Position numbers and translations under genes: made by a program
Shown: positions 1-23,530 of the stretch, one piece after another
How positions within the stretch are numbered: the stretch's first letter is position 1
Layout: each line of letters opens with the position of its first letter
DNA from: an uncultured Actinomycetes bacterium
GTDB taxonomy: Bacteria > Actinomycetota > Thermoleophilia > RBG-16-64-13
Length of the DNA: 64,000 bases
Assembly: GCA_963706025.1 (NCBI GenBank)
Contig: CAVPLM010000003.1
Span: 320,001 to 384,000, forward strand
Direction of reading: 5' to 3'
The notes under the pieces: generated by a model
The model's input: the letters and a program-made list of their open reading frames with translations, nothing else
The model's database searches: none
What the model was told of the DNA's origin: nothing

Positions 1-1
1 A

Positions 2-1696: not shown

Positions 1697-2415
1697 CTAC
1701 GGAAGGAACCGGCTCGGATCCGTCAGGAAGTCGCGGTACAGGCGGAAGTGATCCGTCGCTTCGTACTCCGTTTCCCGGATGCCCGTGTCTGCGAGAAGGA
1801 AGATCTGGCTGTCGGGCAGCGCCATGAGAATCGGGGAGTGTGTCGCGATCACGAACTGAGCGTGGCTGGAAACGCGATGGGCCGCGAGGATCCTCAGGAG
1901 CTCCAGTTGGCTCGCCGGGGAGAGGGCACTCTCGGGTTCGTCCAGGAAGTACAGCCCCGGCACACTGTAGCGGCCGGCCAGGTAGGCCAGGATCCCCTCT
2001 CCATGGGACCTCGCCGTAAGGTCGGCACCGCCGTGGTATTTGGCTTGACCAGGATCGAGCCGCGTCACGTCGTCGAGGAACTCCGCCCACTCGCGGAAGG
2101 CCTCCGCGCTGAACAGCCCCCCGGTGACGCTGCCCTCGACGAGGGTGACCCGCACGTGGTGACTCAAGGCCGCCGCCGAGAGTTCGTCGCTAGCCAGATA
2201 GCGCCTGGGCTGACCCCACATGGGCAGTCCGCAAAGCTGCGCCACCGCCTGGATGAGCGTGGACTTCCCCGATCCGTTCTCCCCCACCAAGAAGCTCACC
2301 GAGCGGTTGAAGTCCAGCCTCTGGCGCCCCTGCAGGGGCGCCACGTTGAAGGGGTACCTTCCCCGATCCGGGAACTCGTCGCCCCGGATCTCCACGCTTT
2401 GCAGCAGAGACTCAT
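1697..2415 (-). CDS. ABC/AAA-type predicted ATPase (COG3910-like)
   Basis: Walker A GENGSGKS, SHGE signature, LDEPESALSP, IATHSPIL; probable true ATG at 2415 overlapping upstream stop, with a frameshift near the start (ORF track starts 2395). Confidence 0.82.
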
Positions 2416-4712
2416 CGAAAGTCCGGGGAGGAGTCCAGAAGTATCAGCGCGTCGGCGGCCTTGACCCCTCGCCCCTCTGCGCCCACCATCAGGGGGTTGA
2501 TGTCTATCTCCGCGAGATACGGCTCGAGGTCGAGGGCAAGTCGCGACATCTTGAGCAGCACGTCCTCGATCGCGGCGACGTCCGCCCTCGGGTGACCTCG
2601 GGCGCCGGTAAGCAGCTTGAAGCCTTTGGTCTCGCGGACCATCGCGGCCGCGTCGGTCTCCGTCAGGGGGGCCACTCTGAGAGCGACGTCTTCGAAAACT
2701 TCCACGAAGATACCGCCCAGACCGAACAGGAGCGTCGGTCCGAACTGGGGGTCCCTCTTCATGCCGACTATGCACTCGGCGACCGAATCGGCCACCATCT
2801 CCTGTATCAGCACCCCGTTGATGGTCGCCTCCGGGTAGCGCTCCGCTCCCTGCCGCAGGATGCGGTGAAACTCGGCCTCCGCTGTTTCGGCTGTGCCGCA
2901 GCCCAGCGCGACCAGGCCGGCCTCGGTCTTGTGGAGGATGTCGGGGGAGTCGATCTTCAGCACCACCGGGAACTCGAATACGGGCAGCGTTGCCGCGAGC
3001 TGGTCCGCGCTGGCCACAGGCCACTCCCGCGTTATCGGGATGCCGTAGGCCTCCAATACCTTCTTCGCCTCGTGCTCGCTCAGGCTCTTCTGCCCACGCG
3101 CCAAGGCCGTTTCTATGATCGCGCGGGCTCGGTCCACTGCCTGGTCCTGGTCGACGACTCGGCTTCGTTCCGACACTTCGCCTCCGTCCTTGCTCATGCC
3201 CCCCTCACCCCGCCGGTAGTAATCGATCACGTGGCCCAACGCCCGGAACGCCCGGTCGGGCGTCGGGTACACGGCTATTCCGTTGTCTTGATAGTAGCGG
3301 CGCAGTCTCAGTCTCTCCGCTTCCACGGCGATATCGCTGCGCGGGTCAAGGTTCTCCCTGAGCACCACGACGACCGGTATGCCCGATATCCGCTGGATGT
3401 CGATGGGGATCTCGGAGAGCCAGGGCTCGTCCTCCGTGGATGTCTGGCTCGCGTAGTGCATCAGCCGTCGGAGTTCCTTGGACAGCACTATCCTGTCCAG
3501 GATGATCGTTCCGACCTCACCTGACCCGGCCATGGCCTCGAGAACGCCCTTCACCACCGGAGGCGAGGGCATCGGGGCGAGGACGTCCACCGGGTTGGAG
3601 GCGGTGGAGCCCACCGGGGGGAGGAAAGAGGCGATCTTGTCGCGGATCGCTGGGCTCATCGGTGGCATAGTGAGGCCGGCCCGATAGCATGCGTCGCTGG
3701 CCACCACGCTGTTGCCTCCGCCGGCACACACATAGCCGATGCGTGGGTCGGCGAGCCGGGGCAGGAAATGGAAGGCGGCGAGGCAGTCCAGGAGCTCCTC
3801 GAGGCTCTCTACCCGTACCACCCCTGCCTGGCGGAGCACTGCGGCCCAGACTTCGAGGTTGCCGGCCAAGGCGCCGGTGTGGCTGCTCGCGGCCACCGCC
3901 CCTTGGGGCGTCGCCCCTCCCTTCCACAGCACTACCGGTTTCGTGGCGGCGACCCGGCGCAGTACATCGGCGAACCTCCGGCCGTCCCGCGCTCCCTCGA
4001 CGTACATCCCGATGATGCTGGTGGCCGGGTCGGCGCCCATGTATTCGAGAAGGTCGGCCTCGTTGAGATCGAGGGCGTTCCCGAAACTGATCACCTTGCT
4101 CGAGTAGAAGCCGAAGTTGGGTGTGGCGCGGGCAAAGTCCTCCGACAGCCCTCCGCTCTGGGCGACAAAGGCCACGTCGCCACTCTCACGGGGATAGCCC
4201 TCGCCAGGATGCTGGGTAACGCCGCCCGCCGGGGAATAGACACCCAGGCAGTTGGGCCCCACCATGCGGAAGCTGCCGTCGAACTGCTCGCGCAGTTCAG
4301 CCTCAAGAGCTCTGCCTTCCTCCGTACCCGTTTCGCCGAAGCCGCCGGTGAAGGCCACGATCGTCTTGACACCCTTCTCCCGACACTCCCGCACCACCGA
4401 CGGTAGAGTCTGGGCGGGCACGAAGAGGAAGGCCAGGTCGGCAGCCTCCGGCAGCGAGGCGACCGATGGGTAGACCTCCAGCCCCATCAACTGCCCCCCT
4501 CGGGCGCTGATAGGGTAGAGCCGGCCGGGGAATCCGAAGTGGAGGAGAGCCCGGAGCATGGAAGTGCCTGGTTTCCAGGTGTCCTGAGAGACGCCGACGA
4601 CCGCTACGCTACTGGGGAAGAAAAGCGGTCGCAACTCCTCGTAGATGCCCGGTTGCGCCACGTCGGTCGATTTGGCCTCGGGTCCCTCTTGTTCACTCAT
4701 GTCGCGGGTCAC
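2412..4712 (-). CDS. ADP-forming acyl-CoA synthetase (CoA-binding alpha + ATP-grasp beta)
   Basis: GPNCLG, SHTGALAG phospho-His, LSEHEAKKVLEAYGIP, KIDSPDILHKTEAG, EIDINPL; beta part has its own possible ATG at 3197. Confidence 0.9.
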   Translation of the reverse strand: MTRDMSEQEGPEAKSTDVAQPGIYEELRPLFFPSSVAVVGVSQDTWKPGTSMLRALLHFGFPGRLYPISARGGQLMGLEVYPSVASLPEAADLAFLFVPAQTLPSVVRECREKGVKTIVAFTGGFGETGTEEGRALEAELREQFDGSFRMVGPNCLGVYSPAGGVTQHPGEGYPRESGDVAFVAQSGGLSEDFARATPNFGFYSSKVISFGNALDLNEADLLEYMGADPATSIIGMYVEGARDGRRFADVLRRVAATKPVVLWKGGATPQGAVAASSHTGALAGNLEVWAAVLRQAGVVRVESLEELLDCLAAFHFLPRLADPRIGYVCAGGGNSVVASDACYRAGLTMPPMSPAIRDKIASFLPPVGSTASNPVDVLAPMPSPPVVKGVLEAMAGSGEVGTIILDRIVLSKELRRLMHYASQTSTEDEPWLSEIPIDIQRISGIPVVVVLRENLDPRSDIAVEAERLRLRRYYQDNGIAVYPTPDRAFRALGHVIDYYRRGEGGMSKDGGEVSERSRVVDQDQAVDRARAIIETALARGQKSLSEHEAKKVLEAYGIPITREWPVASADQLAATLPVFEFPVVLKIDSPDILHKTEAGLVALGCGTAETAEAEFHRILRQGAERYPEATINGVLIQEMVADSVAECIVGMKRDPQFGPTLLFGLGGIFVEVFEDVALRVAPLTETDAAAMVRETKGFKLLTGARGHPRADVAAIEDVLLKMSRLALDLEPYLAEIDINPLMVGAEGRGVKAADALILLDSSPDFR

Positions 4713-6385
4713 CCTTCTGGGGTCTCCAGTATGTAGACCACGCCGATATCGCCGTCGACCCTAACGCGCATCCCCGTCTTGAGTTTCTTCGTGCCTTCGA
4801 CGCACCCTGAAATGACCGGCAGGCCATACTCCCGGCCCAAGATGGCCGAGTGGCTCAAGATACCGCCGACGTCTGTGACGACGGCCTTGGCGACGTTGAA
4901 GAGGGGTGTCCACACTGAGGAGGTCTCGATCGTCACCAGGATGTCGCCGGGCTCGAACTTATCGAAGTCTTCCTCTGAGCGGAGCACCTTGACCACTCCC
5001 TCGGCGACGCCGGGGGTCGACACGGTGCCGTAGAGATCTGCGTTCAGTTCCGGTCTCACCCGGGGATGAGGCTGCTGTGTGCTGCGTAGCATAGGACTGC
5101 TCGCGATCACCTCTCCCAGTTTGGTGATGTCCCCGATGAACAGATCCGGTTCGGCTTTGCGGAAGCGCGCGTGCTCTGTTCTACGCTTGGCCACCAGATC
5201 TTGAGCAGGGAATCGGCCCAGAATGCGCGCGCTGATCTCTTCCGGAAGCAGGAAGTACACATCTTGGGGGTCGTCGACGATCCTTTGGACGGCGAACCTT
5301 CTCCCGATCTCCTTCGTCACCCGGCGGGCCAACGCATTGCCGTAATTCTCGGCATAGAATGGATGCTCATCGTCCACGACGCTCGACCACTGAGCCGCTC
5401 TCATCAGCTCGGCGAACGCTTCCTTCTTGTCCTCCGGTACGCGTGAAAGTACCTCTTCCTCAGCCCTCGCCCTCGCCTCGAGGAGCCTCGGTTGGGCTTC
5501 GTCCAGCGCGAACACCGGGACCATCATGAAGCGCCTGATCGACGGCAACACCTGGCTCGGCTTCTCGATCCAGGTGGGGTGGCTGGCATCCCAGTTCTCG
5601 ATGGTGCGCCAGCCGTATTCGGCCAGGAACGCGTGGAAAGCTGCGAGCCAGGCCCTTCCGGCCTCGGAGCTCTCCAGCCTGAGGAGCAGTTCTTCGTCGT
5701 TCGGCGTCTCCGCGAAGAGGGGCTCGAGTCCCGTTTCCCGGGCCTTCGCCCCCAGATAGAACATCTCCCTGTCGGTCTGCAGTATCTTGTGGTTGAAACC
5801 CGCCATGAGATCGTTGAACAGACGGTTGTTCCTGTCTATCCCGACGAGATCCTTGCACATCTCCTCGAACATCTCGTAGATCTTGCAGTAGGCAAGGAGC
5901 CACACCATATGCAGATTGCCGGCTCGCCGGTAAAGCCAGACCCATTCGTCGAAGGCGTCCGAAAGCTCGAAGTCCTCGCACCCCTCGATGTCGACGGCCT
6001 TGGCCTTCTCATAGAGGGCCATGACCTCGTCTACACCCTTGTTGTACTCCCGGCCGAAATCCTCGATCCAGGGTGCTATCCGTTTTTCGAATTTCGCCGT
6101 CCGCTCTTTGCGCTCCTCTTCAGTCGTGAAGAGGGTGCCGTCATAGACCCAGCCGTCTTTCAGCTTGCAGTCGAAGCCTCTGCATTCGGGGACGCAGAAG
6201 TACTCGTGCCCGTATTGGAGCCCGATGTTGTCGTAGTTGTACTGGAGCATCCACAGATCGAAGGGCGTGGGGGAACGCAGTGTCTCTTTCCGGTCGAGGA
6301 TCCAGACTTTGTAGCGTTCCAGGAGCGCCATATCGCGCTCCTCGTTCCAATTAACAAGCACGCCCTCGGTCGAGTAACCTGACAT
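4709..6385 (-). CDS. PEP-utilising mobile-domain protein, phenylphosphate synthase subunit A-like
   Basis: C-terminal swivel His domain (WTPLFNVAKAVVTDVGGILSHSAILGREYGLP...VDGDIG), long helical N-terminal region, no ATP-grasp; RBS AAGGAG. Confidence 0.8.
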   Translation of the reverse strand: MSGYSTEGVLVNWNEERDMALLERYKVWILDRKETLRSPTPFDLWMLQYNYDNIGLQYGHEYFCVPECRGFDCKLKDGWVYDGTLFTTEEERKERTAKFEKRIAPWIEDFGREYNKGVDEVMALYEKAKAVDIEGCEDFELSDAFDEWVWLYRRAGNLHMVWLLAYCKIYEMFEEMCKDLVGIDRNNRLFNDLMAGFNHKILQTDREMFYLGAKARETGLEPLFAETPNDEELLLRLESSEAGRAWLAAFHAFLAEYGWRTIENWDASHPTWIEKPSQVLPSIRRFMMVPVFALDEAQPRLLEARARAEEEVLSRVPEDKKEAFAELMRAAQWSSVVDDEHPFYAENYGNALARRVTKEIGRRFAVQRIVDDPQDVYFLLPEEISARILGRFPAQDLVAKRRTEHARFRKAEPDLFIGDITKLGEVIASSPMLRSTQQPHPRVRPELNADLYGTVSTPGVAEGVVKVLRSEEDFDKFEPGDILVTIETSSVWTPLFNVAKAVVTDVGGILSHSAILGREYGLPVISGCVEGTKKLKTGMRVRVDGDIGVVYILETPEG

Positions 6386-6403
6386 GGTCTCTGGCTCCTT
6401 ACC

Positions 6404-7366
6404 CTAGAATCTGAAGCTGATCCGGAATGTCTCGGGTCTTGTCTGCAGAATGAACACGGGGTCCGAGGGGGCGCCGCGATCGATCGCCCACTCGATGTCT
6501 TGGGGCCTGCCGAAGTGTGCCTCGATGCGCTTGCCGATCCTGGCCAATTCGAGCACTTCTTCATCGAGAAGGCAGCTGCAGCTTTCGCCCGCCTCAGAGG
6601 ATAGACCATCGCCCGGCGCCCCGGGGGCGATCCTGCGATCGACTATCGTGAACTCGGTGGCGTCCACGGTCCAGTTGTCGGGAATGACCGCTCCGGCGAC
6701 CACGATCTCCCCGAGGCCCCGGCACCCCTCGATGATCATCCGAGTGGCATCGGCCGTCGTCGGTTCCGCCGTGAACATGACACCCGCCGCGTCGGCGTCG
6801 ACCATCGCGAGCACCGCCACGCCTATAGGATCTGAGTCGAGCGGGAGCCCTTTGCGGGCTCGGGCGACCAGAGAGCGGGCGTTGAAGGTGCTGGACCACA
6901 CCCTGATCACGTTCTCCGCGACGGCGGCGCTCCCGGTCACGTTGAGGAAGCTCTCGTACTGTCCGGGGTGGCTCGCCGGCCCCGCGGACCGGGTGGCGAC
7001 GGGCAGGTTCGCAATGCCGGTCCTCGCGCATAGCCCGTCGTAGTGGCCGGCCAGGGTGTCTGAGATGTTCCGCGGCATGTCCTTCGACTCGACGATCTCG
7101 CACACGATCCTGGAAGCCTCCGTGAATCTGGCCAACTGCTTGGGATCGTCGGGGTCTGCCTCGAAGGGAGCCAAGTACTTCTTGATCTCGGCTCCGGCGC
7201 CGGTGGCCCTCATGAATTCCTCGTAGGCCTCCAGACAAAGCGCAAAGCCGGGCGGGACCTGAAAACCGGCCCTGGTCAGCTCGCCGAGGTTCGCGCACTT
7301 CCTGCCGACCGATCCACCGTCTGCTTGGGTCAGGTCTTCGAGCCAGGATATCCACTCACTCGTCAT
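6404..7366 (-). CDS. PEP/pyruvate-binding (ATP-grasp) protein, phenylphosphate synthase subunit B-like
   Basis: VGRKCANLGEL, VPPGFAL, VATRSAGPASHPGQYESFLNV, PQDIEWAID, FILQTRPE; start MTSEWISWL at 7366 in ATGA overlap. Confidence 0.82.
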   Translation of the reverse strand: MTSEWISWLEDLTQADGGSVGRKCANLGELTRAGFQVPPGFALCLEAYEEFMRATGAGAEIKKYLAPFEADPDDPKQLARFTEASRIVCEIVESKDMPRNISDTLAGHYDGLCARTGIANLPVATRSAGPASHPGQYESFLNVTGSAAVAENVIRVWSSTFNARSLVARARKGLPLDSDPIGVAVLAMVDADAAGVMFTAEPTTADATRMIIEGCRGLGEIVVAGAVIPDNWTVDATEFTIVDRRIAPGAPGDGLSSEAGESCSCLLDEEVLELARIGKRIEAHFGRPQDIEWAIDRGAPSDPVFILQTRPETFRISFRF

Positions 7367-8149
7367 CCGGTCGCCCCCATCCGGTTCGCCACGGGTCGGC
7401 CCCCCGCTGCTTCGCCCCCATATCTCACATTGTCTCTCAGGCCGTTGAAGCGCTCGATCACCATGATCCGCCTCGGTGGGCCCCCGGTAGATGTAGCCTG
7501 TGTAAAGGATAGTCTTGAACCCCCGCTTTTTGGCGGGGGTGATGTCCGCCCACTCCTTATCGCCCATCATGGCCGCTTCGCCGGGCAAGATCCCGCGGGC
7601 GTTCAGATCCTCGGCCAGTACGTCGTAGATCGTCCCGTCTTCCTTCGACGTCCCTTCGTACCGGGTATCCACCGCCCGGTCGGCAATGCGCATCCTCCCA
7701 CGTGGGGTCACCAGGGCCTCGAAGTATTTCAGGACGTCGTGTCTCTCCAAGAACCTGAATTCGCAGGAATCGTCCATAGGCCCAGGGCTGGTCCTGGCCG
7801 CCGTGACTACGGAAAGCTCTATACCCTCCTCGCGCAGGTAGCTCAGAGCCTCGTGCGCGCCGGGCGCCAGAGCCAGATACTCCTGCTCGACGCCGAGGAA
7901 CACCTCTCCGGCCGCGGGATCGTCATCGAACACATAGCCGAGAAGCTCGATTTTGTGACGTTCCAGGACCACCGGGAGGGAGCCGTACTTCTCGATCAGC
8001 ACGCGCCACCTATGGTATGCGCTCGCGCTCGACTCCGGTCTGCTCAAAGCCTTGGCGGTGTCGCCGGTCAGCAGATGGCCGCGTCTCGGAGTGACATCCA
8101 TCAAGCACTCACCCATGTCGATGCCCATCCACTTGACATCGAGGGTCAT
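7363..8149 (-). CDS. HAD-superfamily hydrolase (frameshift near 7462)
   Basis: GIDMGECL motif I, MMGDKEWADITPAKKRG motif IV; removing one base near 7462 gives ADHVIERF...GATG-stop overlapping the next ATG. Confidence 0.75.
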
Positions 8150-9033
8150 GGCGCGTCTGCTTCTCCGGACTCTCGATATCCCAGGTCATAGGAAAGGGCT
8201 GCCGCCACCTGTCTGAGGGCCTGCTGATACCGCCGGTCCTCGGCCTGTCCGTAGCGCACCTCGGAAACGACCAAGGAGAGACTGGCCCGGACCTCCCCGG
8301 AGAAGTCCCTCACGGGCACGGCCAGAGCGCACACCGCCCGCTGCTGCTCCTGGATGTCGTGAGCCACCCCTTCCTGCACCACCCGGCGGAGTTCGTCGGC
8401 GTAGCGGTCGGGATCGGTGATGGTGAACGGAGTGAGGGCCACCAAAGGGCGGCTCAAGGCTTTGGTCCGTCTTTCTTCCGGTCCGAAGGCCAGCAGCACT
8501 TTGCTGTGGGCATTGGCGAGGTCGGTGAATGTCTGGCCGACGTACATGAGGAACTTGAACGGACGCGGCGACGGGGAATGAGCGACGCACAAGGGGCCGT
8601 CCCCGTTCCAGACGGTGAGCCCCACGCTTTCGTCGGTGGCATCGGCCAGTCTCTCGAGATGCGGCGCTGCGAGACGGGCCAGAGCCGCCTCGGCTATCCA
8701 TACGTATGCCAGTTGGAGCACCGCCGGTCCCAGGAAGTACTTGCCGTTCAAGGGATTCAGAGCGATGACACCTTCCGCCTCCAAGGTCTTCGTCAGCCGG
8801 AACGCGGTGGTACGTCGCAGTCCCGACCGCCGGGCCAGTTCTGAGGGGTTCCATTCGGGGTGCCCAGAGTCGAACATGCGCACGATGCGCAGGGCCCGCT
8901 GGACCGATTGGACCAGAGAACCGCTACCCGGCTCGTCCAGATCGGGTTCGTCGGGGTCGAAAGCCGGATGTTCTGGGTCTTTGCTCACATCGGACCGCTC
9001 TGGAGACTCAGCTGTTTCTGTGGAGGAAGACAA
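8146..9033 (-). CDS. IclR-family transcriptional regulator
   Basis: VQSVQRALRIV...ELARRSGLRRTTAFRL HTH; AHSKVLLAF and CALAVPVRD effector-domain motifs; start uncertain. Confidence 0.92.
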   Translation of the reverse strand: MSSSTETAESPERSDVSKDPEHPAFDPDEPDLDEPGSGSLVQSVQRALRIVRMFDSGHPEWNPSELARRSGLRRTTAFRLTKTLEAEGVIALNPLNGKYFLGPAVLQLAYVWIAEAALARLAAPHLERLADATDESVGLTVWNGDGPLCVAHSPSPRPFKFLMYVGQTFTDLANAHSKVLLAFGPEERRTKALSRPLVALTPFTITDPDRYADELRRVVQEGVAHDIQEQQRAVCALAVPVRDFSGEVRASLSLVVSEVRYGQAEDRRYQQALRQVAAALSYDLGYRESGEADAP

Positions 9034-9050
9034 GGTCGCCGTGCAAGAGT

Positions 9051-9172
9051 ATTGTTCTATAATACGTCAGTCATGTCAATATTTTGGGACTGGAGCAGCC
9101 AAAACCTTGACATCGGGCCAGGCCTAGAGCTATCGTGAGACTGATTTTTGCCTTCTATAATCCAATAATGGA
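9051..9172. promoter_or_regulatory. Divergent sigma70-type promoters with candidate operator
   Basis: + strand TTGACA(9107-9112)-N18-TATCGT; - strand TTGACA(9079-9074)-N17-AACAAT; TTCTATAAT twice; palindrome TCCA-ATAA-TGGA 9161-9172. Confidence 0.5.
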
Positions 9173-9256
9173 CAGAGGAGTGCTTGCCCAGTCGTCGCTG
9201 CGCCGACGTCCATTGATTGGCTCTGGCCTTGTGGTAATCGGAGGTTCGTCTTGAGA

Positions 9257-10937: not shown

Positions 10938-10941
10938 GCCC

Positions 10942-11829
10942 GTGAACCTACCTGCCTTCGCGTACCTGGAAGCCGGAACCTGGAGGAGGCCTGGAGTCTG
11001 CTGCGGGAGCACCGGGCGACGGCAAGGTGCTTGCCGGGGGGACCGACCTCCTGGTCAAGATGAAACATAGGAGACTCATCCCCGTCTCATCTGGTCAGCA
11101 TCAAGGGCATAGCCGGGCTCGACTACGTCGAATACAAGCTCGGCGAGGGGCTGCGCGTGGGCGCCTCTCACAACCATAGAGTCGGTCAAGCGCTCCCTGG
11201 TGGTGCGCAAGATGTATCCGGTGCTACTTCCAGGCGGCTGCGTACATGGCCACGTCGCGATCCGCAACCGAGCCACCGTGGAGGCAACATCTGCAATGGC
11301 TCGCCCTCGGCGGAGACGGCGCCGGCCCTGATCGTGCTTGGTGCAAGGGTACGGATCGTGGGGCCGGGCGCGAGAGGGTCGTCGCGGTCGAGGACTTCTT
11401 CACCGGGCCGGGCTGTACGGTGCTGGAACCCGGTGAGATCGTGGCCGAGATCCAGGTGCCTGAGCCACCGCGCGGGAAGCGCCGGGGTATATGAGAAGCA
11501 CAGCCTGAGGCGGATGGACGTGGCCATGGTTGGGGTGGCCGCACTGGTGGCCCCCGCGGGAGAGACCTGTGGCGACATACGGATCGCACTCAGCGCAGTC
11601 GCGCCGACTCCCGATGAGGGCCAGGAAGGCGGAGGACATGCTCCGGGGCCTGGCTCCGACCTAGAGCCTGGTCGCCGCGGCTGCGCGCGCGGCCGCCGAA
11701 GAATCGCGGCCCATCACCGATATCCGCGGCAGCGCGGAGTCGCGCAGGCAGACCGTGGAAACGCTGACGGCTCGGGTGGTCCACCAGGCTCTGAAGGGCG
11801 GCCAAGACTGGAGGTCGACCGGCAGATGA
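10942..11829 (+). CDS. Xanthine dehydrogenase-family FAD subunit (CoxM-like), frameshifted
   Basis: AGGTDLLVKMK, IRNRAT..GGNICNGSPSAETAPAL, RIALSAVAPTP, PITDIRGSAE; stop overlaps next ATG; no HcrB-type Cys insert seen. Confidence 0.8.
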
Positions 11830-14292
11830 AGCAGGCACCGACCGAGGCACCGAACGCGGAGACGACCGACATGATGCGGAAGATCGCGCTCACCGTCAAC
11901 GGCAAGGGGTATGAGTTCGAGGTCGAGCCCCAGGAGACGCTGGTGGAGCTTCTGCGGGAGAGGCTGCGCCTCATGCGGACCAAGGAAGGCTGCGGGGTGG
12001 GTGAGTGCGGGTCGTGCACCGTCGTCATGGACAAGAAGGCCGTGGCCTCCTGTCTCGTGCTGGCGGTGGATGCCGACGGCTCGGAGATCGTGACGACGGA
12101 GGGCATGTCCTGCGACAGCGAGTTCCAACCGATGCAGGAGTCGTTCGTCGACCATCTGGCGATGCAGGCGAGGGTCGGGGTGTCCACGCTCAGCGCACGC
12201 GAGCAGTACCTGACGTTCTGCCACCTGTGTTGCGGGCATTGCGCGGTCAAGGTGACCGTGGCGGACAACGTCATCGTCGACATGGCCCCGGACCTGGAGA
12301 GCGGCCTGTCCAACGAGCAATGCGTGTACAAGAAGGGGCGGCTCTCGATCCCCGAGATCCACGGCCATCCCGACCGGCTCCTCTACCCGATGAAGCGGGT
12401 GGGAGCCCGAGGGGAGGGCAAGTGGGAACGTATCTCCTGGGACGAGGCGCTGGACACCGTGGCGGACAAGTTCCGGACCATCAAGGAGGAATCCGGGCCC
12501 GAGTACGTGATGTTCGGCCTGGGTGAACCGCATGGGCTGGAGTTCGCCTTCGCCCAGCGCTTCGCCTCGGTCTTCGGTACGCCCAACGTCACCACTCCCG
12601 GCTGGTTCTGCGGGGTGCCCTTCCAGACGGCCAACGCCTTCACCTTCGGCCAGGGCGCGATACCGGACGAGGAAGGCACACCCCGGAGCTACTGGTGATC
12701 TGGGGCACCAACCCCAACCACACCTCCGGGGGCATCCGCAGGCAGACGGTCATCAAGATCGTGGAGAGCGGAGCCAAGATCGTCGTCATCGACCCGCGCA
12801 AGATCGACTTGGCCGGCCTCGCCGACCTGTGGATCAAGCCTCGCCCGGGCACCGACGGGGCCCTGGCGATGGGACTGCTCAAAGTCGTGGTCGAAGAGGG
12901 GCTCTACGACAAGGAGTTCGTGCGCGACTGGACCGTCGGCTTCGATGAGCTCAAGAGCCGAGCTGGGCAGCCTTCTCGCTGGCCGACGTGGCAGCAGCCA
13001 CCTGGGTGCCGGAGGAGCAGATCCTCAAGCTCGCCCGGATGATCGGCGAGAACCACCCCACCTGCCTGCACTGGGGCAACGGCATCGACCAGGGGGTCCA
13101 ACCCTTCCAGACCCACCGGGCCATCTCCATCCTCGCGGCGATCAGCGGCAACCTCAACGTCCCCGGAGGGCATCGTCCTACCCGACTCAGAGACCAATTT
13201 CGTCCGCCCGGGCAGGTTCTACAGGCTGAGCAAGCGGCTCCCCGTCGCGGACAAGACCATCGGCAAAGAGTTCCCGATGACCCTCAAGTCGACCTCCGTT
13301 CCCTCGTGGAGCCTGGTGAAAGCCATCCTCGAGGAGAAGCCATATCTGCCACGCGCAGCCTTCTTCATGCTCACGAACCCAATGACCAGCTTCATCAACA
13401 CGGCGGGAGACCCGGGAGGCGCTCATGAAGATCGAGTTCACCGTGGTGCTCGACCTGTTCATGACACCGACCGCGGCGTTGGCCGACATCGTCCTCCCGG
13501 TCGCGTTCGGGATGGAGCACGATGAGGTGGGCTACTGGCCGGGATGGTACAACGAGGTGAGGGCTCATCCCAAGGTCGTAGACCCGCCGGGGGAGGCTGG
13601 CCCGACACCAGGATCATCAACGAGCTGGCGAAGCGCCTCGGGCTGAGCGACTTCTGGGAGGAGGACCATGAGGCGCTCGACGTGTGGCTGGCTCCAAGCG
13701 GTCTCACCTTCGAGGACCTCAAGCACCAACGGACTCTGCTGCCCAAGAAGAACTACAGCAACGCCAACCTGCGCACGCCCTCGGGCAAGGTGGAGATCGT
13801 AGCCGAGCCGCTCGCCGAACTGGGTCTGGCGGTGCTGCCGACCTGGCGGGAGCTCTCCGCCATCCCGGAGATACCGGAGGAGTATCCGCTGCTCTTCACC
13901 AACTCGAAATCCGAGATCTTCATCGGCACGAGCTACAAGGGGGTGCCGGCCCTGCGCGGGATGCGGCCCGAGCCGGTGGTCCAGATGAACCCGGCCACCG
14001 CTCGTGGAGCTCGGGTTGAAGGACGGCGACGAGGTCTACATCGAGACCAAGATGGGGAGGGTCAAGCAGCGACTGGTTTTCGATCGGGACATCGACCCTC
14101 GGGTGGTTTTCGCTGATTTCGGCTGGTGGTTCCCTGAGGACCCCTCGGGCGACCTGGGTTGGGACTGGGGGAACATCAACATGCTCACCAGTGCCGAGGG
14201 GCCGGTCGACCCGGCGGTCGGTGTGATGGTGCTCAGAGGCGTTCCCCTGCAAGGTGTACGCTGCGGAGCCTACTGGAGGCTCAGCGTGCTGA
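11826..14292 (+). CDS. Partial CoxS [2Fe-2S] domain fused to Mo/W-bisPGD oxidoreductase (acetylene hydratase-like), frameshifted
   Basis: KEGCGVGECGSC...SC, then FCHLCCGHC, HPDRLLYPMKRVG, WERISWDEALD, IWGTNP, PRPGTDGALA, TPSGKVEI, WWFPE..NINMLT..DP. Confidence 0.8.
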
Positions 14293-14350
14293 GCCTGTGT
14301 CACGGGTCGGGGACCTTCGGCGACAACCCTCGACAAGGGAGGTAGGCCGC

Positions 14351-15091
14351 ATGGTGATTACGCCAAGATGGGTCGGCATCGACTTCGGCCAGACCCTAAT
14401 GGACTCGTCCCCGGAACGCACCTATTGGATGATCGGAGACACCAGCAAGGAACTGGGTGAGCCAGAGCTGGTCGAGGAACGCTGTCATCGTTGGCGGACG
14501 ATGAAGGAGAAGTACGGCTCCTATCCGGTGATAAAGGAGCGGGCCCGGCCGGAGATAATGACCTACGTCTTCGATGACCGTCCCGGCGTCGACCGAGGTG
14601 TTCAGCCGCATCGAGCAGAAGTACCTGAAGATCGCCGACGGAGCGCATCGACGCGATCAAGTACCTCAGCGACCAGGGCATCGAGGTGTCGATCGTCGCG
14701 GAGCTCAAGAGGACCCTGGGGCCCATCGGCACCGACATGGTGAGCGCGTTCCTGGTGAGACAGGGCGTGATCGAGTACTTCGACGAGCTCATCAGCCCCC
14801 AGGGCAAGATCGATCTGCGCACGGGCGAGACCGATCTGCGCTACAAGGGCACTTCCAAGGAAGTGGGCGATCTCTACGACGTGCTCGCCGACGACCTCCG
14901 CTCGCGCGGGATCGAGCCCCGGGACGCGGTCATGGTGGGCGACAAAGAATGGTCCGATATCACGCCTGCGCAGAAGCGCGGTTTCCAGGCCATCCACTAC
15001 TCCGGGCTACATCTTTCATGCCCCCTCGAACGCCACCTACGAGATCACGGCATCTTCCGAGCTAAAGAACATCATCAGACCGGTGGAGTGA
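14351..15091 (+). CDS. HAD-superfamily hydrolase, paralog of 7363-8149 (frameshifted)
   Basis: RBS GGAGGT; GIDFGQTL; MVGDKEWSDITPAQKRG; collinear with first HAD. Confidence 0.75.
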
Positions 15092-15095
15092 AAAG

Positions 15096-15803
15096 ATGAA
15101 TCAGCCGAAGCGAAGTTGATCGTCGAATACGATGACGGCTCCACGAGGGAGGCGGACTACGCGGCAAGGTGGACGGCGCAGACCCGGCTACCGCTTGGCT
15201 CGGCTCTGGGACTCTTCCCGGCCGGCGCGCACGTGGGTCGTGTCCAAGCACTACCTGCTGGTGCGGTGGCAAGGACGGCTGGCAGGAGGTCTTCGGGATC
15301 GACGACGGACTCTGCCGAATCTGCTCCGTTACTACGTCATCGAGAGGATCGAAGATAGGGGTCAGACTCTCTCTGGAGACCGGGTGGCGACTATCCCGAA
15401 CTGCACGTCATCGAGCGCACTCCCCGCGATGTGGTCGGCGCCGTGATCGTCGGCGAGGGCGGTGTCAAGTCCTACGCTCTCGACAAGTCAGGTCGAGCGG
15501 TGGGAGGGGATATACGAGGCCGGGGGCAAGAGGGAGCATGTCAGGTTCGACAAGACGAGCGACAAGTATCCGCACGAGGCCGGCGACGACGGGAACGCCT
15601 TGGAGCCTGTCTTGGACGCGCTGAGGCGCGAACTCGACACTAGGGGCGTCGATCCCCGGACGCTGCTGGCCATGGACGAGTCAGAGCGCGTGAGCGAGTA
15701 CAAGACTCTGGCCTCCGGCGCGAACATCCGAGGGAGTTACAGACAAGAAGACGTCTATGGGTTCGTGGAGTCGATGATAACCAGACTGGCGGGAGCGGTG
15801 TGA
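15096..15803 (+). CDS. Hypothetical protein (frameshifted), coupled to UbiD gene
   Basis: Coding-like segments IVEYDDGSTREAD / HYLLVRWQ / LLRYYVIERIEDRG / VERWEGIYEAGGK...RLAGAV; stop overlaps UbiD start. Confidence 0.55.
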
Positions 15804-17262
15804 TGAAAGACCTTAGAGACTGGATCGCGGCTTGCGAGAACGAAGGCGAGCTCAAGCGGATCACCAAGGAGGTCGACTGGGAGCTGGAGCTCGGCCACGT
15901 GGCCACCCTTAACGAACGGGCGGGGGGACCGGCTCTCCTCTTCGAGAAGGTCAAGGACTACGGCATCCCGGTACTCAGCAGCACGGTGACCACGGCCAAG
16001 AAGATGGCCATCACCTGCGGGAAGCCCGCGCACTACACGCTCTGCGACGTCTCTCGGGAATGGAAGAACGTTATCCAGCAGGGCAGGCTGGTGGAGCCGG
16101 TGGAGGTCAAGGACGACATCCCGGTGATGTACGAGGTCCTGGAAGGTGACGACGTCAACGTCTTCGACCTTCCCTCCCGCGCCTCTACCCGCAGGACGGC
16201 GGCCGCTACCTTGGCCTCGCCTGCAACTACATCACCCAGGACCCGGAGACCGGCTGGACCAACCTGGGGACCTACCGCGGCATGGTCATGGACGAGAAGA
16301 CCATCGGCGCGAACATGATGGGCAAGGCCAAGCACGGACGGATCCACGTCGACAAATACTCCAAGCTGGGGACCAGGATGCCGGCGGCCGTCTATTGCGG
16401 CTGCGATATGTTCCATCTTGTGGTCGGCTCGACCATGGTGCCGGCGCAGCAAGACGAGTACGGTGTCATCGGCGCAGTCATGGGTCGGCCGGTCGAGGTC
16501 TTCACCAGCGACCTGACCGGGCTGAAGCTTCCGGCTCATGCCGAGATCATTCTCGAGGGCGAAGTGGAGCTCGATCCCGACAAGTTCCGGCCCGAGGGCC
16601 CCCTGGGTGAGTACGTGGGCTTCTACGCTGCCAGCGGTGAGGGCCCGAAACCCTGGCTTGAGATCAAGCGGATCTACAAGCGGAAGGATCCCATCTTCGT
16701 CATCAGCACCGTCGGCCGGCCGGTGGGCGACGCGCACATGATCAACGCCGTCGGTCGTATGGCCTATCTGTGGGCCGACCTGGAGATGATGAAAGTGCCG
16801 GGTGTCCGGTCGGTCTACTGCCCGCCCGAAGCCGCGGGCCGATTCTGGGCCATAGTGTCGGCGAAGATCACCCATCCCGCCGGTGCCGAGAGGGTCGCCG
16901 AGGCGGTGTCTTGCAGTCCCACAGGGCACTTCGGCATCAAGGGGATCATCGTCGTCGACGAGGATGTCCCGGCCGACGATATGGCAGGCGTCTGGTGGTC
17001 TCTGGCCTGCCGCTACGATCCAGGTAAGGACACCCAGATCATCAACAAGATGCGCCCCACCCCGTTCGACCCCGCCCTCCCTGCTGGGGCGAAGGCCATA
17101 GGCTCCAAGATCCTGATCGATGCCACCACGCCGGTGGAATGGGAGAAGAAACCTCGCCTGGTCGAACTGGACGAGGCCACTTCGAGGGCGGTGTTGGACA
17201 AGTGGCAGGAATACGGGTTCGAACAGCCGTACAAGCTGTCAGGAGATGCTCTGCCGAGGTAG
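15800..17262 (+). CDS. UbiD-family (de)carboxylase, phenylphosphate carboxylase beta subunit-like (frameshift near 16175)
   Basis: DLRDWI..ELKRITKEVDW, GPALLFE, NLGTYR, EGPLGEY, GRFWAIVS, GIKGIIVVDED, ACRYDP, TPFDPAL. Confidence 0.85.
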
Positions 17263-17486
17263 CCGTCAGCGGGGCAGAGGTGCCGAACGAAAGCACGACA
17301 CGAGGAGGAAAAGGGCGTAGTGTGATAAGTGGCGGTGGGAGCTACTCAGGGAGACCCGGCCCGCGTGTGTGGCGGCGCAGGGCAGGCGGTCGGGGGAGGT
17401 GTGGTTGAGAGAAGATGCTGGGTTACGAGGTAGGGGTTTTGTCGGTTGACGGAAGAGATAGTAGTGCATGAAAACGGGGGTTACAC

Positions 17487-18965: not shown

Positions 18966-19145
18966 ACCAACTCGTGCCTCTGGAACCTGCCCACCCGCGA
19001 AAACAGGCAGCAGGCTCAGGATGAAGTGAGACCGTGGCGCGTGCCCAGCACGCGCCACGGTCTCATTCCGGTGGATCGCGGTCCGCGACAAAACAGATGG
19101 CGCCGCACACGGCGACCGGTGAACCCGAAGAGCGAGCCCGAGAAA

Positions 19146-20099: not shown

Positions 20100-20170
20100 G
20101 GAGCGAAGGAGTGTTGCCTGGGTCATCGTCCAGGTGCTGTGCTGAGGACCAACAGGACAAGGAGTGAGAA

Positions 20171-22468: not shown

Positions 22469-22694
22469 TATTGGTATACTCGTTTCATTTGACAGACAGC
22501 GCCAGGTCCCTCGCCGGCACCCGGGCGATGGTCGCCGTGTGAAGAAGCGGCGTGACGCGCCCTAGAAACGGGAGAGGTCCAGTTTTGAAGAGCAACAAGG
22601 AGGGAATTCACAGTCCTAGTCGAGTTGGACCGCACGGCTTTGCATCGGAAGCTGATCTGGCACGAGATGCCGATCTTAGTAAGGAGAGTCGATC

Positions 22695-23501: not shown

Positions 23502-23530
23502 CTATCCGCCGAGCCGAAAGGACGAACCAT

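Follow-up and report, generated by a model that had tools for sequence, protein, structure and literature searches.

A candidate island for oxygen-independent phosphorylation and carboxylation of phenolic compounds in an uncultured Thermoleophilia-type actinobacterium

The two divergent gene arms found on the stretch of DNA analysed here (the window, 64,000 nucleotides) most likely allow an uncultured soil or sediment actinobacterium to phosphorylate a phenolic compound and then to carboxylate it without oxygen. For the wider reading, that the arms form one unit with which an anaerobic actinobacterium of the Thermoleophilia type catabolises a phenolic, or a similar aromatic compound with a hydroxy or amino group, independently of oxygen, we see about an even chance. 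Seen directly are gene content, conservation, family placement and the fact that the natural population carries the genes intact. Several parts, including a Mo/W hybrid enzyme, are unlike those of the textbook pathway.

Gene organization of the island

Pfam and NCBIfam scans recovered every gene named in the initial annotation at the position given for it, between 2412 and 17262, and the island with its flanking genes is organized as follows.

1..1390, plus strand: aldehyde:ferredoxin oxidoreductase (AFOR), tungsten type (Pfam AFOR_N and AFOR_C)
1697..2395, minus strand: AAA_21-type ATPase, terminal gene of the minus arm (Pfam)
2412..4712, minus strand: ADP-forming acyl-CoA synthetase, ACD (Pfam CoA_binding, Succ_CoA_lig, ATP-grasp_5)
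4709..6385, minus strand: dikinase subunit A, 558 aa, intact (Pfam PEP-utilizers, residues 477–548)
6404..7366, minus strand: dikinase subunit B, PPDK_N ATP-grasp nucleotide-binding domain, about 320 aa (Pfam)
7367..8149, minus strand: HAD1, atypical HAD with motif I D-x-G (Pfam Hydrolase, HAD_2, Hydrolase_like)
8146..9033, minus strand: IclR-family regulator (Pfam HTH_IclR and IclR_C)
9034..9250, no strand: divergent intergenic (promoter/operator) region (sequence)
9251..~10950, plus strand: AMP-forming acyl/aryl-CoA ligase, frameshifted (Pfam AMP-binding and AMP-binding_C)
~10950..~11826, plus strand: CoxM/XdhB-like FAD-binding subunit, frameshifted (FAD_binding_5 and CO_deh_flav_C)
11823..14291, plus strand: Fer2 and Mo/W-bisPGD fusion, frameshifted (Pfam Fer2, Molybdopterin, Molydop_binding)
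14351..15088, plus strand: HAD2, second atypical HAD (D-x-G), frameshifted, 245 aa in L002 (Pfam, NCBIfam, alignment)
~15093..15803, plus strand: Unk, 231-aa protein, heavily frameshifted (no Pfam or NCBIfam family)
15800..17262, plus strand: UbiD-family (prFMN) carboxylase/decarboxylase (TIGR02724, tree)
17487..18965, plus strand: solute-binding protein (Peripla_BP_6) with a twin-arginine-like signal (Pfam, NCBIfam)

The arms had been described as two ATGA-coupled operons diverging around an IclR gene. The overlaps are real, being of the ATGA/GTGA type at five of six minus-arm and three of five plus-arm junctions in the intact same-genus copy L002, but the IclR gene, instead of lying between the operons, opens the minus arm and shares an ATGA overlap with HAD1. 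Its best NCBIfam match is the PcaR/PcaU/PobR subfamily (133.6 bits, below the cut-off of 284.75), and the intergenic region contains two copies of TTCTATAAT. The island is also larger than first stated: the AAA_21 ATPase and AFOR genes belong to it and are kept beside it, with 74–96% identity, in five further genomes or records (L018/L009, L017/L011, L015, L013, L026). The ATPase gene follows the ACD genes in L009, L011, L012 and L015–L019 and adjoins HAD2 in L027, and the AFOR reading frame begins about 470 bases ahead of the window (C3:319531–321390, 619 aa). As noted before, a second UbiD, a UbiX and a large subunit of the xanthine-oxidase type are all missing from the window, and none of the 76 window ORFs scanned gave a CBS-domain protein. 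The Peripla_BP_6 protein is possibly an uptake component; its gene is located between those of UbiD and a pfkB-like protein and is absent at that place in genome G002. In L024 the conserved core described below is flanked by an ABC transporter and by binding proteins of a similar kind.

The dikinase, the HAD proteins and Unk

The kinase, annotated as a PEP-synthase half and a swivel-His half, is a small-molecule dikinase split over two genes, PPDK_N scoring 232.6 bits on one and PEP-utilizers 74.5 bits on the other. Subunit B, the ATP-grasp subunit, is a separate 320-aa gene in L002, and subunit A consists of a rifampicin-phosphotransferase-like substrate-binding domain and a C-terminal phosphohistidine swivel domain (GGILSHSAILGRE). 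A PEP/pyruvate-binding domain is absent from both subunits. Only PRK08296-type NCBIfam models match subunit A over its full length, those for PEP synthase and RPH covering residues 226–554 only, and its best solved relative is rifampicin phosphotransferase (residues 227–553).

The 18 aligned HAD1 and HAD2 sequences retain the nucleophilic Asp, the Lys and the acidic Mg2+ motif (GDKEWxD), but Asp+2 is Gly in all of them, in contrast to ordinary HAD phosphatases that have the general-acid Asp there; this would fit the release of an unprotonated phenolate that attacks CO2. Unk has no Pfam or NCBIfam family and 81 relatives among 1.84 billion representatives. Its AlphaFold model (pLDDT 90.7) gives no Foldseek match at E≤0.001, and the best VIA Z is 4.9.

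The UbiD protein

Profile scores and a quick tree place the island UbiD in the phenylphosphate-carboxylase beta lineage, as had been supposed, as a divergent branch of that family. The intact ortholog scores 457.6 bits with TIGR02724 (phenyl_P_beta; equivalog cut-off 468.95), the next model giving 293, and the two fragments present here score 100 and 292 bits. The protein and all five actinobacterial orthologs scored fall at 437–458 bits, under the cut-off, and relatives with 51–74% identity, named phenylphosphate carboxylase subunit beta by NCBI, score 480–644 bits. The tree nests the island clade (SH-aLRT 100) among sequences so named, distant from the other UbiD paralogs of the genome. The genome contains no second UbiD of the PpcA type, these paralogs reaching 44–116 bits on TIGR02723, but the search for ubiX was successful, with a UbiX encoded outside the window (243 bits, above cut-off). 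The UbiD gene overlaps Unk by ATGA and shares an operon with HAD2; HAD1, HAD2 and Unk have no match at E≤0.01 to families named phenylphosphate carboxylase gamma or delta subunit.

CoA ligases and the Mo/W enzyme

The ACD comprises a beta (ATP-grasp) part at 2412 to about 3200 and an alpha part at about 3200–4712, in a single 766-aa ORF here and in two overlapping genes in G002 and G003. It scores 340–417 bits with the NCBIfam acetate--CoA ligase (ADP-forming) models, all under the cut-offs. The AMP-forming ligase (569 aa in L002) is likewise below the cut-offs of TIGR02262, the benzoate-CoA ligase family (326.6 against 375.25 bits), and PRK06187 (368 against 476), as is the CoxM-like subunit (293 aa in L002) with the XdhB models (224–236 bits) and the 4-hydroxybenzoyl-CoA reductase beta model (140 bits, cut-off 404.55). 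The Mo/W protein (820 aa in L002) has a CoxS-type N-terminal [2Fe-2S] domain followed by a [4Fe-4S] motif (CHLCCGHC) and a Mo/W-bisPGD catalytic domain in which the Cys metal ligand is conserved. Its best solved relative is acetylene hydratase (2e7z, 287 bits; FdhF 197), and this [2Fe-2S]-fused bis-PGD enzyme is most likely a hybrid molybdenum or tungsten enzyme that had not been described before. It is placed in the clade of acetylene hydratase, to which the literature also assigns the catechol dehydroxylases; these are reported to be closest to acetylene hydratase (PMC7028382).

The ligase, CoxM and Mo genes constitute a separate, widespread three-gene unit, with CoxM directly upstream of the Mo enzyme in 57 of 58 metagenome loci that have enough flank and the ligase ahead of CoxM in 29 of 36. 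Conceivably the unit is a stand-in for 4-hydroxybenzoyl-CoA reductase. A xanthine-oxidase-type enzyme that resembles the alpha subunit of that reductase (670 bits, cut-off 995) is encoded about 95 kb away.

Frameshifts in the plus arm

Relative to L002 the plus arm carries about 55 frame-breaking indels of one or two bases between 9.0 and 16.2 kb, one of them in the UbiD gene (16176), compared with two in the 5.7-kb minus arm. We read them as errors of the present assembly and not as gene decay, because the same-genus genomes are intact, short-read contigs lack the indels and substitutions are biased to third codon positions. Every island gene is whole in the same-genus L002 and L009. The advice to repair the frameshifts from reads proved sound, since short-read contigs from four public runs of two studies (X1, X2, X3, X5) are free of the plus-arm indels, indicating that the frameshifts are technical. 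On the minus arm these contigs match at 99–100% with 0–1 gaps (e.g. 743 bases with one difference, 669 with none), and at about 10.1–15.2 kb of the plus arm each has 4–10 gaps against the assembly. Nine of the 12 listed indel places in these contigs are within a few bases of frame-breaking indels relative to L002 (10534, 10686, 10783, 11226, 11254, 11285, 11370, 12674, 19463).

That the plus arm has truly lost its function in this strain and is a relic of recent pseudogenisation is very improbable. The uneven numbers of indels in the two arms, and their occurrence also outside homopolymer runs, would agree with decay, but the independent contigs from four runs lack them, genome-specific plus-arm substitutions show no excess (473, against 613 and 618 in relatives) and 64% of them are on third positions (99:71:303 for positions 1:2:3; 115:81:417 in G002), and single indels also split the pfkB-like gene (19463), an ADH gene (20168–21326) and an AFOR gene (35335–37433). 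The 766-aa ACD and a 581-aa HAD-PPDK_N ORF are probably artificial fusions, as one-base indels coincide with them, at 3199 in a run of C and at 7464 where HAD1 is joined in frame to PPDK_N, and the genes are separate in G002 and G003.

Conservation and linkage

Among named records, the closest carry titles of Gaiellales, Thermoleophilia or Actinomycetes bacteria, and the assignment to a probable actinobacterium was therefore right. In the proposed synteny check the arms co-occur: they are collinear in the same-genus genomes G002 and G003 (78–85% DNA identity) and rearranged but linked in G001, G015 and G011, the modules lying on two contigs in the last. Beside the dikinase in 13 other genomes there is a HAD in 12, Unk in 11, a PpcB-like UbiD in six and the ligase-CoxM-Mo triad in six, and the core conserved across the Thermoleophilia and Chloroflexi records consists of the dikinase, Unk and one or two atypical HADs. 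The UbiD does belong to the PpcB lineage, but as a constituent of the island it adjoins the core in only those six genomes. The other seven have the core without an adjacent UbiD, although in at least three the locus or contig ends too early to judge, indicating that carboxylation is not obligatory for the core.

Proposed pathway and alternatives

From family and architecture, the two-subunit dikinase should phosphorylate an aromatic hydroxyl from ATP via phosphohistidine. The aryl phosphate would next be taken up by a carboxylase formed with the PpcB-lineage UbiD, with prFMN supplied by the UbiX encoded elsewhere, and one or both HADs and Unk may participate. The AMP-forming ligase would convert the aromatic acid to a CoA thioester, which, in the most tentative step, might be transformed, most likely reductively dehydroxylated, by the soluble Mo/W enzyme, whose chain would run from FAD (CoxM-like) over [2Fe-2S] and [4Fe-4S] to Mo/W-bisPGD. 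ACD and AFOR could recover ATP from a thioester or provide a link to the aldehyde level, and IclR is expected to govern the whole unit. The analogy to a phenol-type route drawn in the initial annotation thus holds for the PpcB-lineage UbiD, the split dikinase and the linked arms, but not for the inconstant UbiD adjacency, the independent triad and the missing benzoyl-CoA markers. The suggested search for the latter found no ring reduction or cleavage markers in the genome (92% complete), the best scores being 73.9 bits for Oah/BamA (cut-off 464) and 25.9 for class I benzoyl-CoA reductase subunit B (cut-off 487), and a benzoyl-CoA product would therefore be without a recognised fate.

Alternatively, phosphate might be a temporary handle, the dikinase phosphorylating a phenolic hydroxyl to prepare the ring or a side chain for oxidation or dehydroxylation by the Mo/W enzyme, the HADs then removing the phosphate and UbiD separately carboxylating or decarboxylating what is formed. 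Comparable schemes are CreHI/CreD of p-cresol oxidation, the pathway for acetovanillone and the dikinase pair on which 3-hydroxypyridine dehydrogenase depends; in Ensifer adhaerens a split dikinase (orf9/orf10), likened by the authors to CreHI and phenylphosphate synthase, is reported to be genetically required for the Mo/FAD/[2Fe-2S] 3-hydroxypyridine hydroxylase (bioRxiv 10.1101/2020.01.08.898148). It also agrees with a core that is kept with or without UbiD, with the Dehalococcoidales (Chloroflexi) records L022 and L023, where the dikinase genes (in L023 together with HAD and Unk) have as neighbours an unfused bis-PGD enzyme and a protein of the metallo-beta-lactamase fold but no UbiD, and with a second dikinase pair, 53–60% identical, that directly adjoins the Fer2-Mo gene in G001, G015, L028, L031, L034 and L043. 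We nevertheless consider it fairly unlikely: the UbiD falls specifically in the beta lineage of phenylphosphate carboxylase, and its gene is coupled to Unk in the operon of HAD2, the HADs lack the general acid of an ordinary phosphatase, the known examples are aerobic with xanthine-oxidase-type or P450 partners instead of bis-PGD enzymes, and the CoA ligase travelling with the Mo enzyme indicates that the substrate is a thioester and not an aryl phosphate.

Quite improbable, in our view, is a patchwork brought together by chance or shared regulation, with the dikinase acting on a non-phenolic compound such as an antibiotic, UbiD as a simple aromatic-acid decarboxylase and the triad acting on an unrelated acyl-CoA. 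The modules are indeed shuffled between genomes, the triad mostly occurs without the dikinase (present in 5 of 77 metagenome loci, many of them short) or a PpcB-like UbiD (one of at least 65% identity in 3 of 77), and the nearest solved relative of subunit A is an antibiotic phosphotransferase. However, the modules stay linked, often by 4-base overlaps, across the DNA divergence within the genus, and their linkage (L028, L031 and L085 included) extends to another genus of the family and to Chloroflexi records; the two arms share a single IclR gene and a single divergent promoter region, and the dikinase is split.

Comparison with known systems

Phosphorylation followed by carboxylation, the preferred reading, has a model in phenylphosphate synthase, which uses ATP to phosphorylate an aromatic hydroxyl via phosphohistidine and is split like the present dikinase, a likeness of family and architecture. 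Rifampicin phosphotransferase has a substrate domain homologous to that of subunit A, but unlike the dikinase it is a single polypeptide. The island differs from the Thauera-type phenylphosphate pathway in that the CBS-type PpsC and the PpcA-type second UbiD were not found for it. A precedent for its gene combination is the aniline cluster of Desulfatiglans anilini, which is described as uniting dikinase subunits, a PpcB-like carboxylase and CO-dehydrogenase-type subunits (PMC7500099).

Gene organization of the island

All of the genes in the initial annotation were recovered by Pfam and NCBIfam within 2412–17262, arranged as follows.

2412–4712, minus strand: ADP-forming acyl-CoA synthetase (ACD)
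4709–6385, minus strand: 558-aa protein with a C-terminal PEP-utilizers swivel domain (swivel-His)
6404–8149, minus strand: ORF with a HAD domain (HAD1) followed by a PPDK_N ATP-grasp domain
8146–9033, minus strand: IclR regulator
9034–9250, between the minus and plus arms: divergent control region, from the junction sequence
UbiD end at 17262, plus strand, in this order: AMP-binding ligase, CoxM-like FAD protein, protein with Fer2 and molybdopterin-oxidoreductase domains (Fer2-bisPGD), second HAD (HAD2), protein without a family (Unk), UbiD

The IclR gene had been placed as a free-standing gene between two operons, but it shares an ATGA overlap with HAD1 and is therefore the first gene of the minus arm. 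The control region holds TTCTATAAT twice, about 85 bases apart, and these copies could be -10 elements or the halves of an IclR operator. An aldehyde:ferredoxin oxidoreductase (AFOR) gene (window <1–1390) and an AAA_21 ATPase gene are conserved at the end of the minus arm. At the other end a Peripla_BP_6 solute-binding gene (17487–18965) sits between UbiD and a pfkB-like gene, whereas in the related genome G002 the pfkB-like gene directly follows UbiD. A few kb downstream of the island there is a DDE transposase fragment (21083–21841), adjoined by two "putative cyclase" (PF04199) genes at 22683–24403. Several SLH-domain proteins, including an S8 subtilase, are encoded at 40346–46931 and point to an S-layer-bearing cell envelope.

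Frameshifts and intact copies

In L002, the copy of the island in G002, each gene is a single open frame.

Lengths of the island gene products in L002
Ligase: 569 aa
CoxM-like: 293 aa
Fer2-bisPGD: 820 aa
HAD2: 245 aa
Unk: 231 aa
UbiD: 486 aa
PPDK_N: 320 aa
Swivel-His: 562 aa
ACD, as separate genes: alpha 503 aa, beta 255 aa

When aligned to L002 the window shows 68 gaps of a length not divisible by three. The stretch from 9.0 to 16.2 kb contains about 55 of these and the 5.7-kb minus arm only two, at 3199 and 7464; these two indels lead to the apparent ACD alpha-beta and HAD1-PPDK_N fusions. Contigs from four public short-read runs (two studies) were aligned on 2000–20000, and showed 0–1 gaps in the minus arm (e.g. 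8 differences over 1501 bases, 1 over 743 and 0 over 669) and 4–10 gaps per contig in the plus arm at about 10.1–15.2 kb. At nine of the 12 indel places listed (10534, 10686, 10783, 11226, 11254, 11285, 11370, 12674 and 19463) the L002 alignment has a frame-breaking indel no more than a few bases away, and the indel at 19463 is absent from the contigs of two of the runs, X1 and X2. In a three-way comparison of the plus arm, 473 lineage-specific substitutions fall to the genome under study (G000), 613 to G002 and 618 to the related G003, and those of G000 are distributed 99:71:303 over codon positions 1:2:3, as in genes under selection. A reading of the plus arm as pseudogenes is rejected on these three grounds, i.e. 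the intact frames in L002, the indels missing from the public-run contigs and the selection-type substitutions. The island frameshifts, taken from the start as repairable from reads, are thus technical and not biological, and the protein analyses were for that reason run on the intact L002 orthologs, no repaired window sequence being built. Single-base indels also split a pfkB-like kinase (19146–20025), a zinc ADH (20168–21326) and an AFOR gene (35335–37433), indicating that error-rich patches are not confined to the island; in a genome-wide ORF-coverage scan for such patches the signal was masked by spurious long ORFs at 64% G+C.

The dikinase

PPDK_N stands alone on the 320-aa protein (subunit B) and PEP-utilizers alone at the C-terminus of the 558–562-aa protein (subunit A), and Pfam finds no PEP/pyruvate-binding domain in either. 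The swivel domain matches PF00391 over its full length (1–72 of 72) and reads GGILSHSAILGRE, where the His is presumably the phosphorylated residue, as in the family. Only NCBIfam models of the PRK08296 type ("hypothetical protein") cover subunit A from end to end, and the PRK08296 subfamilies are also the best NCBIfam models for the dikinase, with 150–182 bits against cut-offs of 578–693. Models for PEP synthase, prodigiosin ligase and rifampicin phosphotransferase cover only residues 226–554 of subunit A, and the best solved relative is rifampicin phosphotransferase over residues 227–553, indicating that the N-terminal two thirds is a small-molecule-binding domain of the rifampicin-phosphotransferase kind. 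A precomputed database annotation places PF27448 on the N-terminal part of this protein, which the local Pfam copy does not report. The initial annotation had found no PpsC in the window, and in agreement with this no CBS-domain subunit was detected by Pfam in the 76 window ORFs, nor in the intact L002 island.

The UbiD protein, the HAD proteins and Unk

The L002 UbiD scores 457.6 bits with TIGR02724, the equivalog model for the phenylphosphate carboxylase beta subunit, which is 11 under the cut-off of 468.95; the generic UbiD model comes second with 293 bits and the alpha model gives 162. Five further actinobacterial orthologs (L009, L010, L012, L021 and P0324) are likewise under the cut-off with 437–445 bits, three Dehalococcoidia-type members of the island UbiD clade are over it with 480–492 bits, and typical named members reach 536–644 bits. 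Relatives with 51–74% identity are named phenylphosphate carboxylase subunit beta by NCBI, and come from Dehalococcoidia, Bacillota, Deltaproteobacteria, Spirochaetia and Syntrophorhabdaceae. In a quick maximum-likelihood tree (32 rows, supported by SH-aLRT alone, free of characterised references and with long outgroup branches) the island UbiD clade (SH-aLRT 100) is nested inside the sequences that pass TIGR02724, with the other UbiD paralogs of the genome far away. The proposed kinship with phenylphosphate carboxylase is thus borne out, since both the TIGR02724 ranking and the tree place the island UbiD in the PpcB lineage. The motifs E-x4-E and N-x-G-x-Y-R are visible in the L002 protein, and we take their roles to be as in ferulic acid decarboxylase.

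Besides the island gene G000 contains four UbiD genes, making five in total. The scan covered the three full-length ones, namely a generic UbiD, a VdcC-like protein and a menaquinone decarboxylase; the fourth is a truncated VdcC-like copy on contig C6. None of the three full-length paralogs is a second UbiD of the PpcA type (44–116 bits with TIGR02723). UbiX was sought elsewhere in the genome and is encoded outside the window at C3:46494–47036 on the same contig, with 243 bits to TIGR00421, above the cut-off.

HAD1 and HAD2 are paralogs with about 48% identity. Motif I reads D-[FM]-G in all 18 HAD1 and HAD2 sequences from the loci, so that the nucleophile Asp is kept while the Asp+2, which is the general acid/base in HAD phosphatases, is replaced by Gly in 18 of 18, in departure from the DxD form; the Lys motif and GDKEWxD are retained. 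Against the known gamma and delta families of phenylphosphate carboxylase no match was obtained, both proteins hitting generic HAD models only, with at most 36 bits. The 231-aa Unk matches no family in Pfam and NCBIfam at E≤0.01, the phenylphosphate carboxylase subunit models included, and has 81 relatives among 1.84 billion representatives. Its AlphaFold model has a pLDDT of 90.7 and a pTM of 0.81, and gives no Foldseek match to the PDB at E≤0.001; the best score in the VIA wide search is Z 4.9, to the beta-sandwich of the coronavirus M protein. The fold searches of the predicted model therefore gave no informative match, which falls short of proof of a new fold. In the ESM Atlas the best feature score of 0.86 is to unnamed clusters and is a lead only. 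A complex prediction for HAD2 with Unk gave a median of 0.33, with one control itself at 0.48.

The molybdenum/tungsten enzyme and its neighbours

The 820-aa protein begins with the first [2Fe-2S] domain of the CoxS type (C-x4-C-x2-C-x11-C), matching positions 2–110 of models that are 150–165 long, carries CHLCCGHC where a second [2Fe-2S] domain would follow, and continues with a bis-PGD catalytic domain (Molybdopterin and Molydop_binding). The catalytic subunit is thus of the bis-PGD type in place of a xanthine-oxidase-type large subunit. The FAD subunit scores 140.3 bits with TIGR03195 (HcrB) against a cut-off of 404.55, and the Fer2 domain matches only positions 3–98 of 148 in the HcrC gamma model, with 71 bits against 257.8.

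The best solved relative is acetylene hydratase (2e7z), with 287 bits over residues 133–810, followed by FdhF with 197 bits and pyrogallol hydroxytransferase with 53 bits; the matched solved chains include no catechol dehydroxylase. In the alignment to 2e7z CHLCCGHC faces CQSCDINC, GWFCGV faces MYMCIG, and the Cys metal ligand is aligned. In acetylene hydratase the second cluster Cys is followed by Asp13, a catalytic residue. In the L002 protein a Cys takes its place, and across 23 aligned family sequences no single residue has the majority at this column, which falls outside the set of invariant or nearly invariant ones. The Cys in place of the Asp rules out that the protein is an acetylene hydratase, and its pairing with an FAD subunit identifies it as a redox enzyme. 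PMC7028382 reports that the closest kin of acetylene hydratase are the catechol dehydroxylases of gut bacteria, whose homologs occur in anaerobic aromatic degraders. Together with the nearness to acetylene hydratase this makes aromatic dehydroxylation a reasonable guess, by analogy, for the island enzyme.

The fusion is widespread. Among the clusters listed, 120 in number, identity to the query protein is 51–90% and the record titles include Chloroflexi, Thermincola, Burkholderiales and Desulfobacterales. In a metagenome scan 588 relatives were confirmed, and 77 loci were kept. The CoxM-like gene is directly upstream of the fusion in 57 of the 58 loci with more than 1 kb upstream, and where more than 2.9 kb was available (36 loci) CoxM is preceded in 29 by a homolog of the AMP-forming ligase. 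In distant loci the ligase shares no more than 29–35% identity with that of the island, so substrates probably differ. Word searches of the open-access literature without supplements found no description of the ligase, CoxM-like and Fer2::bisPGD triad (which cannot show its absence from print), and such searches found none of phenylphosphate-type genes in Thermoleophilia, the single paper that names both phenylphosphate and Thermoleophilia being about 3-hydroxypyridine. Gmet_0231/0232 of Geobacter metallireducens were rejected as relatives of the molybdenum enzyme, being a hypothetical protein and a zinc oxidoreductase. The clusters of two recent papers on anaerobic benzene degradation are flavoprotein-based and unrelated.

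Synteny and distribution

The initial annotation had treated the two arms as one island, and in a DNA search of 30 related genomes both are collinear in two genomes of the same genus, G002 (83% identity) and G003 (78–85%), and rearranged in G001, G015 and G011.

Genes at the same locus in 13 other genomes with the swivel-His gene (several "missing" cases stop at a contig or locus border)
Adjacent HAD gene: 12 of 13
Unk: 11 of 13
ACD: 7 of 13
PpcB-like UbiD (≥68% identity): 6 of 13
Ligase-CoxM-Fer2::bisPGD triad: 6 of 13

In G011 the triad is on another contig than the swivel-His locus. In two Dehalococcoidales records, L022 and L023, the dikinase genes adjoin an unfused bis-PGD enzyme (38–39% identical) and a metallo-beta-lactamase-fold protein, in L023 together with HAD and Unk. 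In record L024 the dikinase and Unk are accompanied by two HADs and an ABC uptake system, and in L027 HAD and Unk by two swivel-His genes and two UbiD genes. These Chloroflexi records and the counts indicate that the dikinase, HAD and Unk constitute the invariant core, which UbiD and the molybdenum enzyme often accompany but from which they can be separated. Several genomes and metagenome contigs, namely L010 (2552–5219), L012 (2477–5108), L028 (10425–13000), L031, L034 and L043, have a further, paralogous dikinase pair (53–60% identical) directly beside the Fer2::bisPGD gene.

The closest named records of the swivel-His protein are titled as uncultured Gaiellales, Thermoleophilia, Actinomycetes or Actinomycetota (70–92% identity), and four (L022, L023, L024 and L027) are titled Dehalococcoidales or Chloroflexia (66–79%). 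The PpcB-like UbiD is 68–74% identical between actinobacterial and Chloroflexi-titled records. The identities of the two proteins suggest mis-binning or that the genes passed between phyla recently. Another 250 genomes of the class, evenly sampled, were searched at E≤1e-60 for relatives of the swivel-His protein: the window's own family has them in 11 of its 45 genomes, and the 205 genomes from eleven other families have none; close orthologs (≥82% identity) are present in G001, G002, G003 and G011. By their labels, the public runs in which the island occurs are metagenomes of freshwater, sediment, wetland or soil; none of those listed is an RNA run, and the contigs aligned above come from four of them.

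The rest of the genome

The G000 assembly, in which the window is C3:320001–384000, is 3.66 Mb in 30 contigs with 64% G+C, 92% complete and 7% contaminated. A search for genes of the benzoyl-CoA pathway, as the initial annotation had proposed, detected in this 92% complete assembly neither Oah/BamA (73.9 bits at best against a cut-off of 464) nor subunit B of class I benzoyl-CoA reductase (25.9 bits against 487). Two HGD-D loci are present. The genome contains at least 17 AFOR genes and dozens of bis-PGD paralogs (ORFs of 840–930 aa), for instance at C5:975525–986309, C3:420888–427300 and C17:25708–48988, an arsenal of pterin enzymes that is unusually large for 3.66 Mb. There are four xanthine-oxidase-type large subunits, with MoCoBD_1 genes at C3:432029, C3:474282, C3:499285 and on C21, and the best of them (C3:431630) has 670 bits with the 4-hydroxybenzoyl-CoA reductase alpha model, the cut-off being 995. 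This gene belongs to a second aromatic-looking cluster about 95 kb away, outside the window at C3:420888–433864, which also contains two AFOR genes, a generic UbiD (C3:427346–428950) and a CoxS-like gene (C3:431112).

Possible function

We give about even chances that the island serves the phosphorylation and carboxylation of a phenolic compound. The most economical account is a route of the phenylphosphate type in which accessory parts have been replaced, with thioesterification next and a redox step on the thioester after that. It has a precedent in the aniline cluster of Desulfatiglans anilini, compared below (PMC7500099). The main rival would have the phosphate serve as a handle, and its precedent is a dikinase pair needed by the Mo-dependent 3-hydroxypyridine dehydrogenase, the orf9/orf10 dikinase of that cluster being functionally tied to a Mo/FAD/[2Fe-2S] enzyme (bioRxiv 10.1101/2020.01.08.898148). 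Compared with phosphorylation plus carboxylation, a dehydroxylase role of the hybrid molybdenum/tungsten enzyme is rated as less likely. That the island unites two undescribed enzyme systems is a tentative and rather doubtful proposal when both are taken jointly. One would be an aryl-phosphate carboxylase, where a UbiD of the PpcB lineage acts together with HAD phosphotransferases lacking the general acid and a protein of new fold, the latter two standing in for the alpha, gamma and delta subunits of the Thauera enzyme. In the other, the triad would be an electron-input module of the xanthine-oxidase family grafted onto a catalytic subunit of the acetylene-hydratase/catechol-dehydroxylase clade, and this soluble enzyme would dehydroxylate aryl-CoA esters reductively (or hydroxylate them anaerobically).

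To our knowledge, the anaerobic breakdown of phenolics (lignin, humics, pollutants) is known in detail only from a few Proteobacteria and Desulfobacterota. If the above proposals are true, phosphorylation-dependent carboxylation would extend to uncultured Thermoleophilia and Chloroflexi, and the triad would do the work of 4-hydroxybenzoyl-CoA reductase for many uncultured anaerobes in sediments and wetlands; the hybrid enzyme alone would be a new class if its chemistry were confirmed. Targets for biochemistry are the HAD pair without a general acid, the confidently folded protein without a known fold relative, and the hybrid molybdenum/tungsten enzyme.

Comparison with known systems

The closest known systems are PpsABC and PpcABCD of Thauera aromatica and the single-PpcB variants in strict anaerobes. 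The Thauera phenylphosphate synthase is made up of PpsABC and the carboxylase of PpcABCD. As in PpsABC, the ATP-grasp and swivel-His functions of the island are on two proteins, but the CBS protein PpsC is lacking. As for PpcABCD, the island has a UbiD of the PpcB lineage encoded with a HAD protein and a small family-less protein, and UbiX is present in the genome; it differs in having no second UbiD of the PpcA type, in its HADs, which have about 250 aa, a cap domain and the motif D-x-G and match no phenylphosphate carboxylase subunit model, and in its 231-aa accessory protein without a fold match. CreHI, the acetovanillone kinases and orf9/orf10 of 3-hydroxypyridine degradation are, by description and not by sequence, also two-protein PEP-synthase-like kinases acting on an aromatic hydroxyl, but their pathways are oxygen-dependent or use xanthine-oxidase-type enzymes, and we know of none described with a PpcB-type UbiD.

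The triad resembles HcrABC in its CoxM-type FAD subunit, in a CoxS-type [2Fe-2S] domain feeding a pterin-metal centre and in the CoA ligase alongside. It differs in that the catalytic subunit is bis-PGD (DMSO-reductase family) and not of the xanthine-oxidase type, only the first [2Fe-2S] domain is present and is fused to a [4Fe-4S] motif, and the FAD subunit is of ordinary length and far under the HcrB cut-off. With acetylene hydratase the enzyme shares the N-terminal [4Fe-4S] motif and the conserved Cys metal ligand, whereas the N-terminal [2Fe-2S] domain, the FAD partner and the lack of an export signal set it apart from both acetylene hydratase and Dadh-type enzymes.

The aniline (ani) cluster of Desulfatiglans anilini, as far as the accessible part of PMC7500099 describes it, unites as the island does dikinase subunits, one PpcB-like UbiD and an FAD/Fe-S/molybdenum redox enzyme, namely a phenylphosphoamidate synthase with a relaxed substrate range that accepts both aniline and phenol, a PpcB-like carboxylase and subunits of the CO-dehydrogenase/4-HBCR type. 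In the same part of that report its molybdenum enzyme is of the xanthine-oxidase type and not bis-PGD, a second UbiD subunit is needed from another cluster, a HAD pair, Unk and an ADP-forming synthetase are not mentioned, and the host is an isolate of Desulfobacterota and not an actinobacterium.
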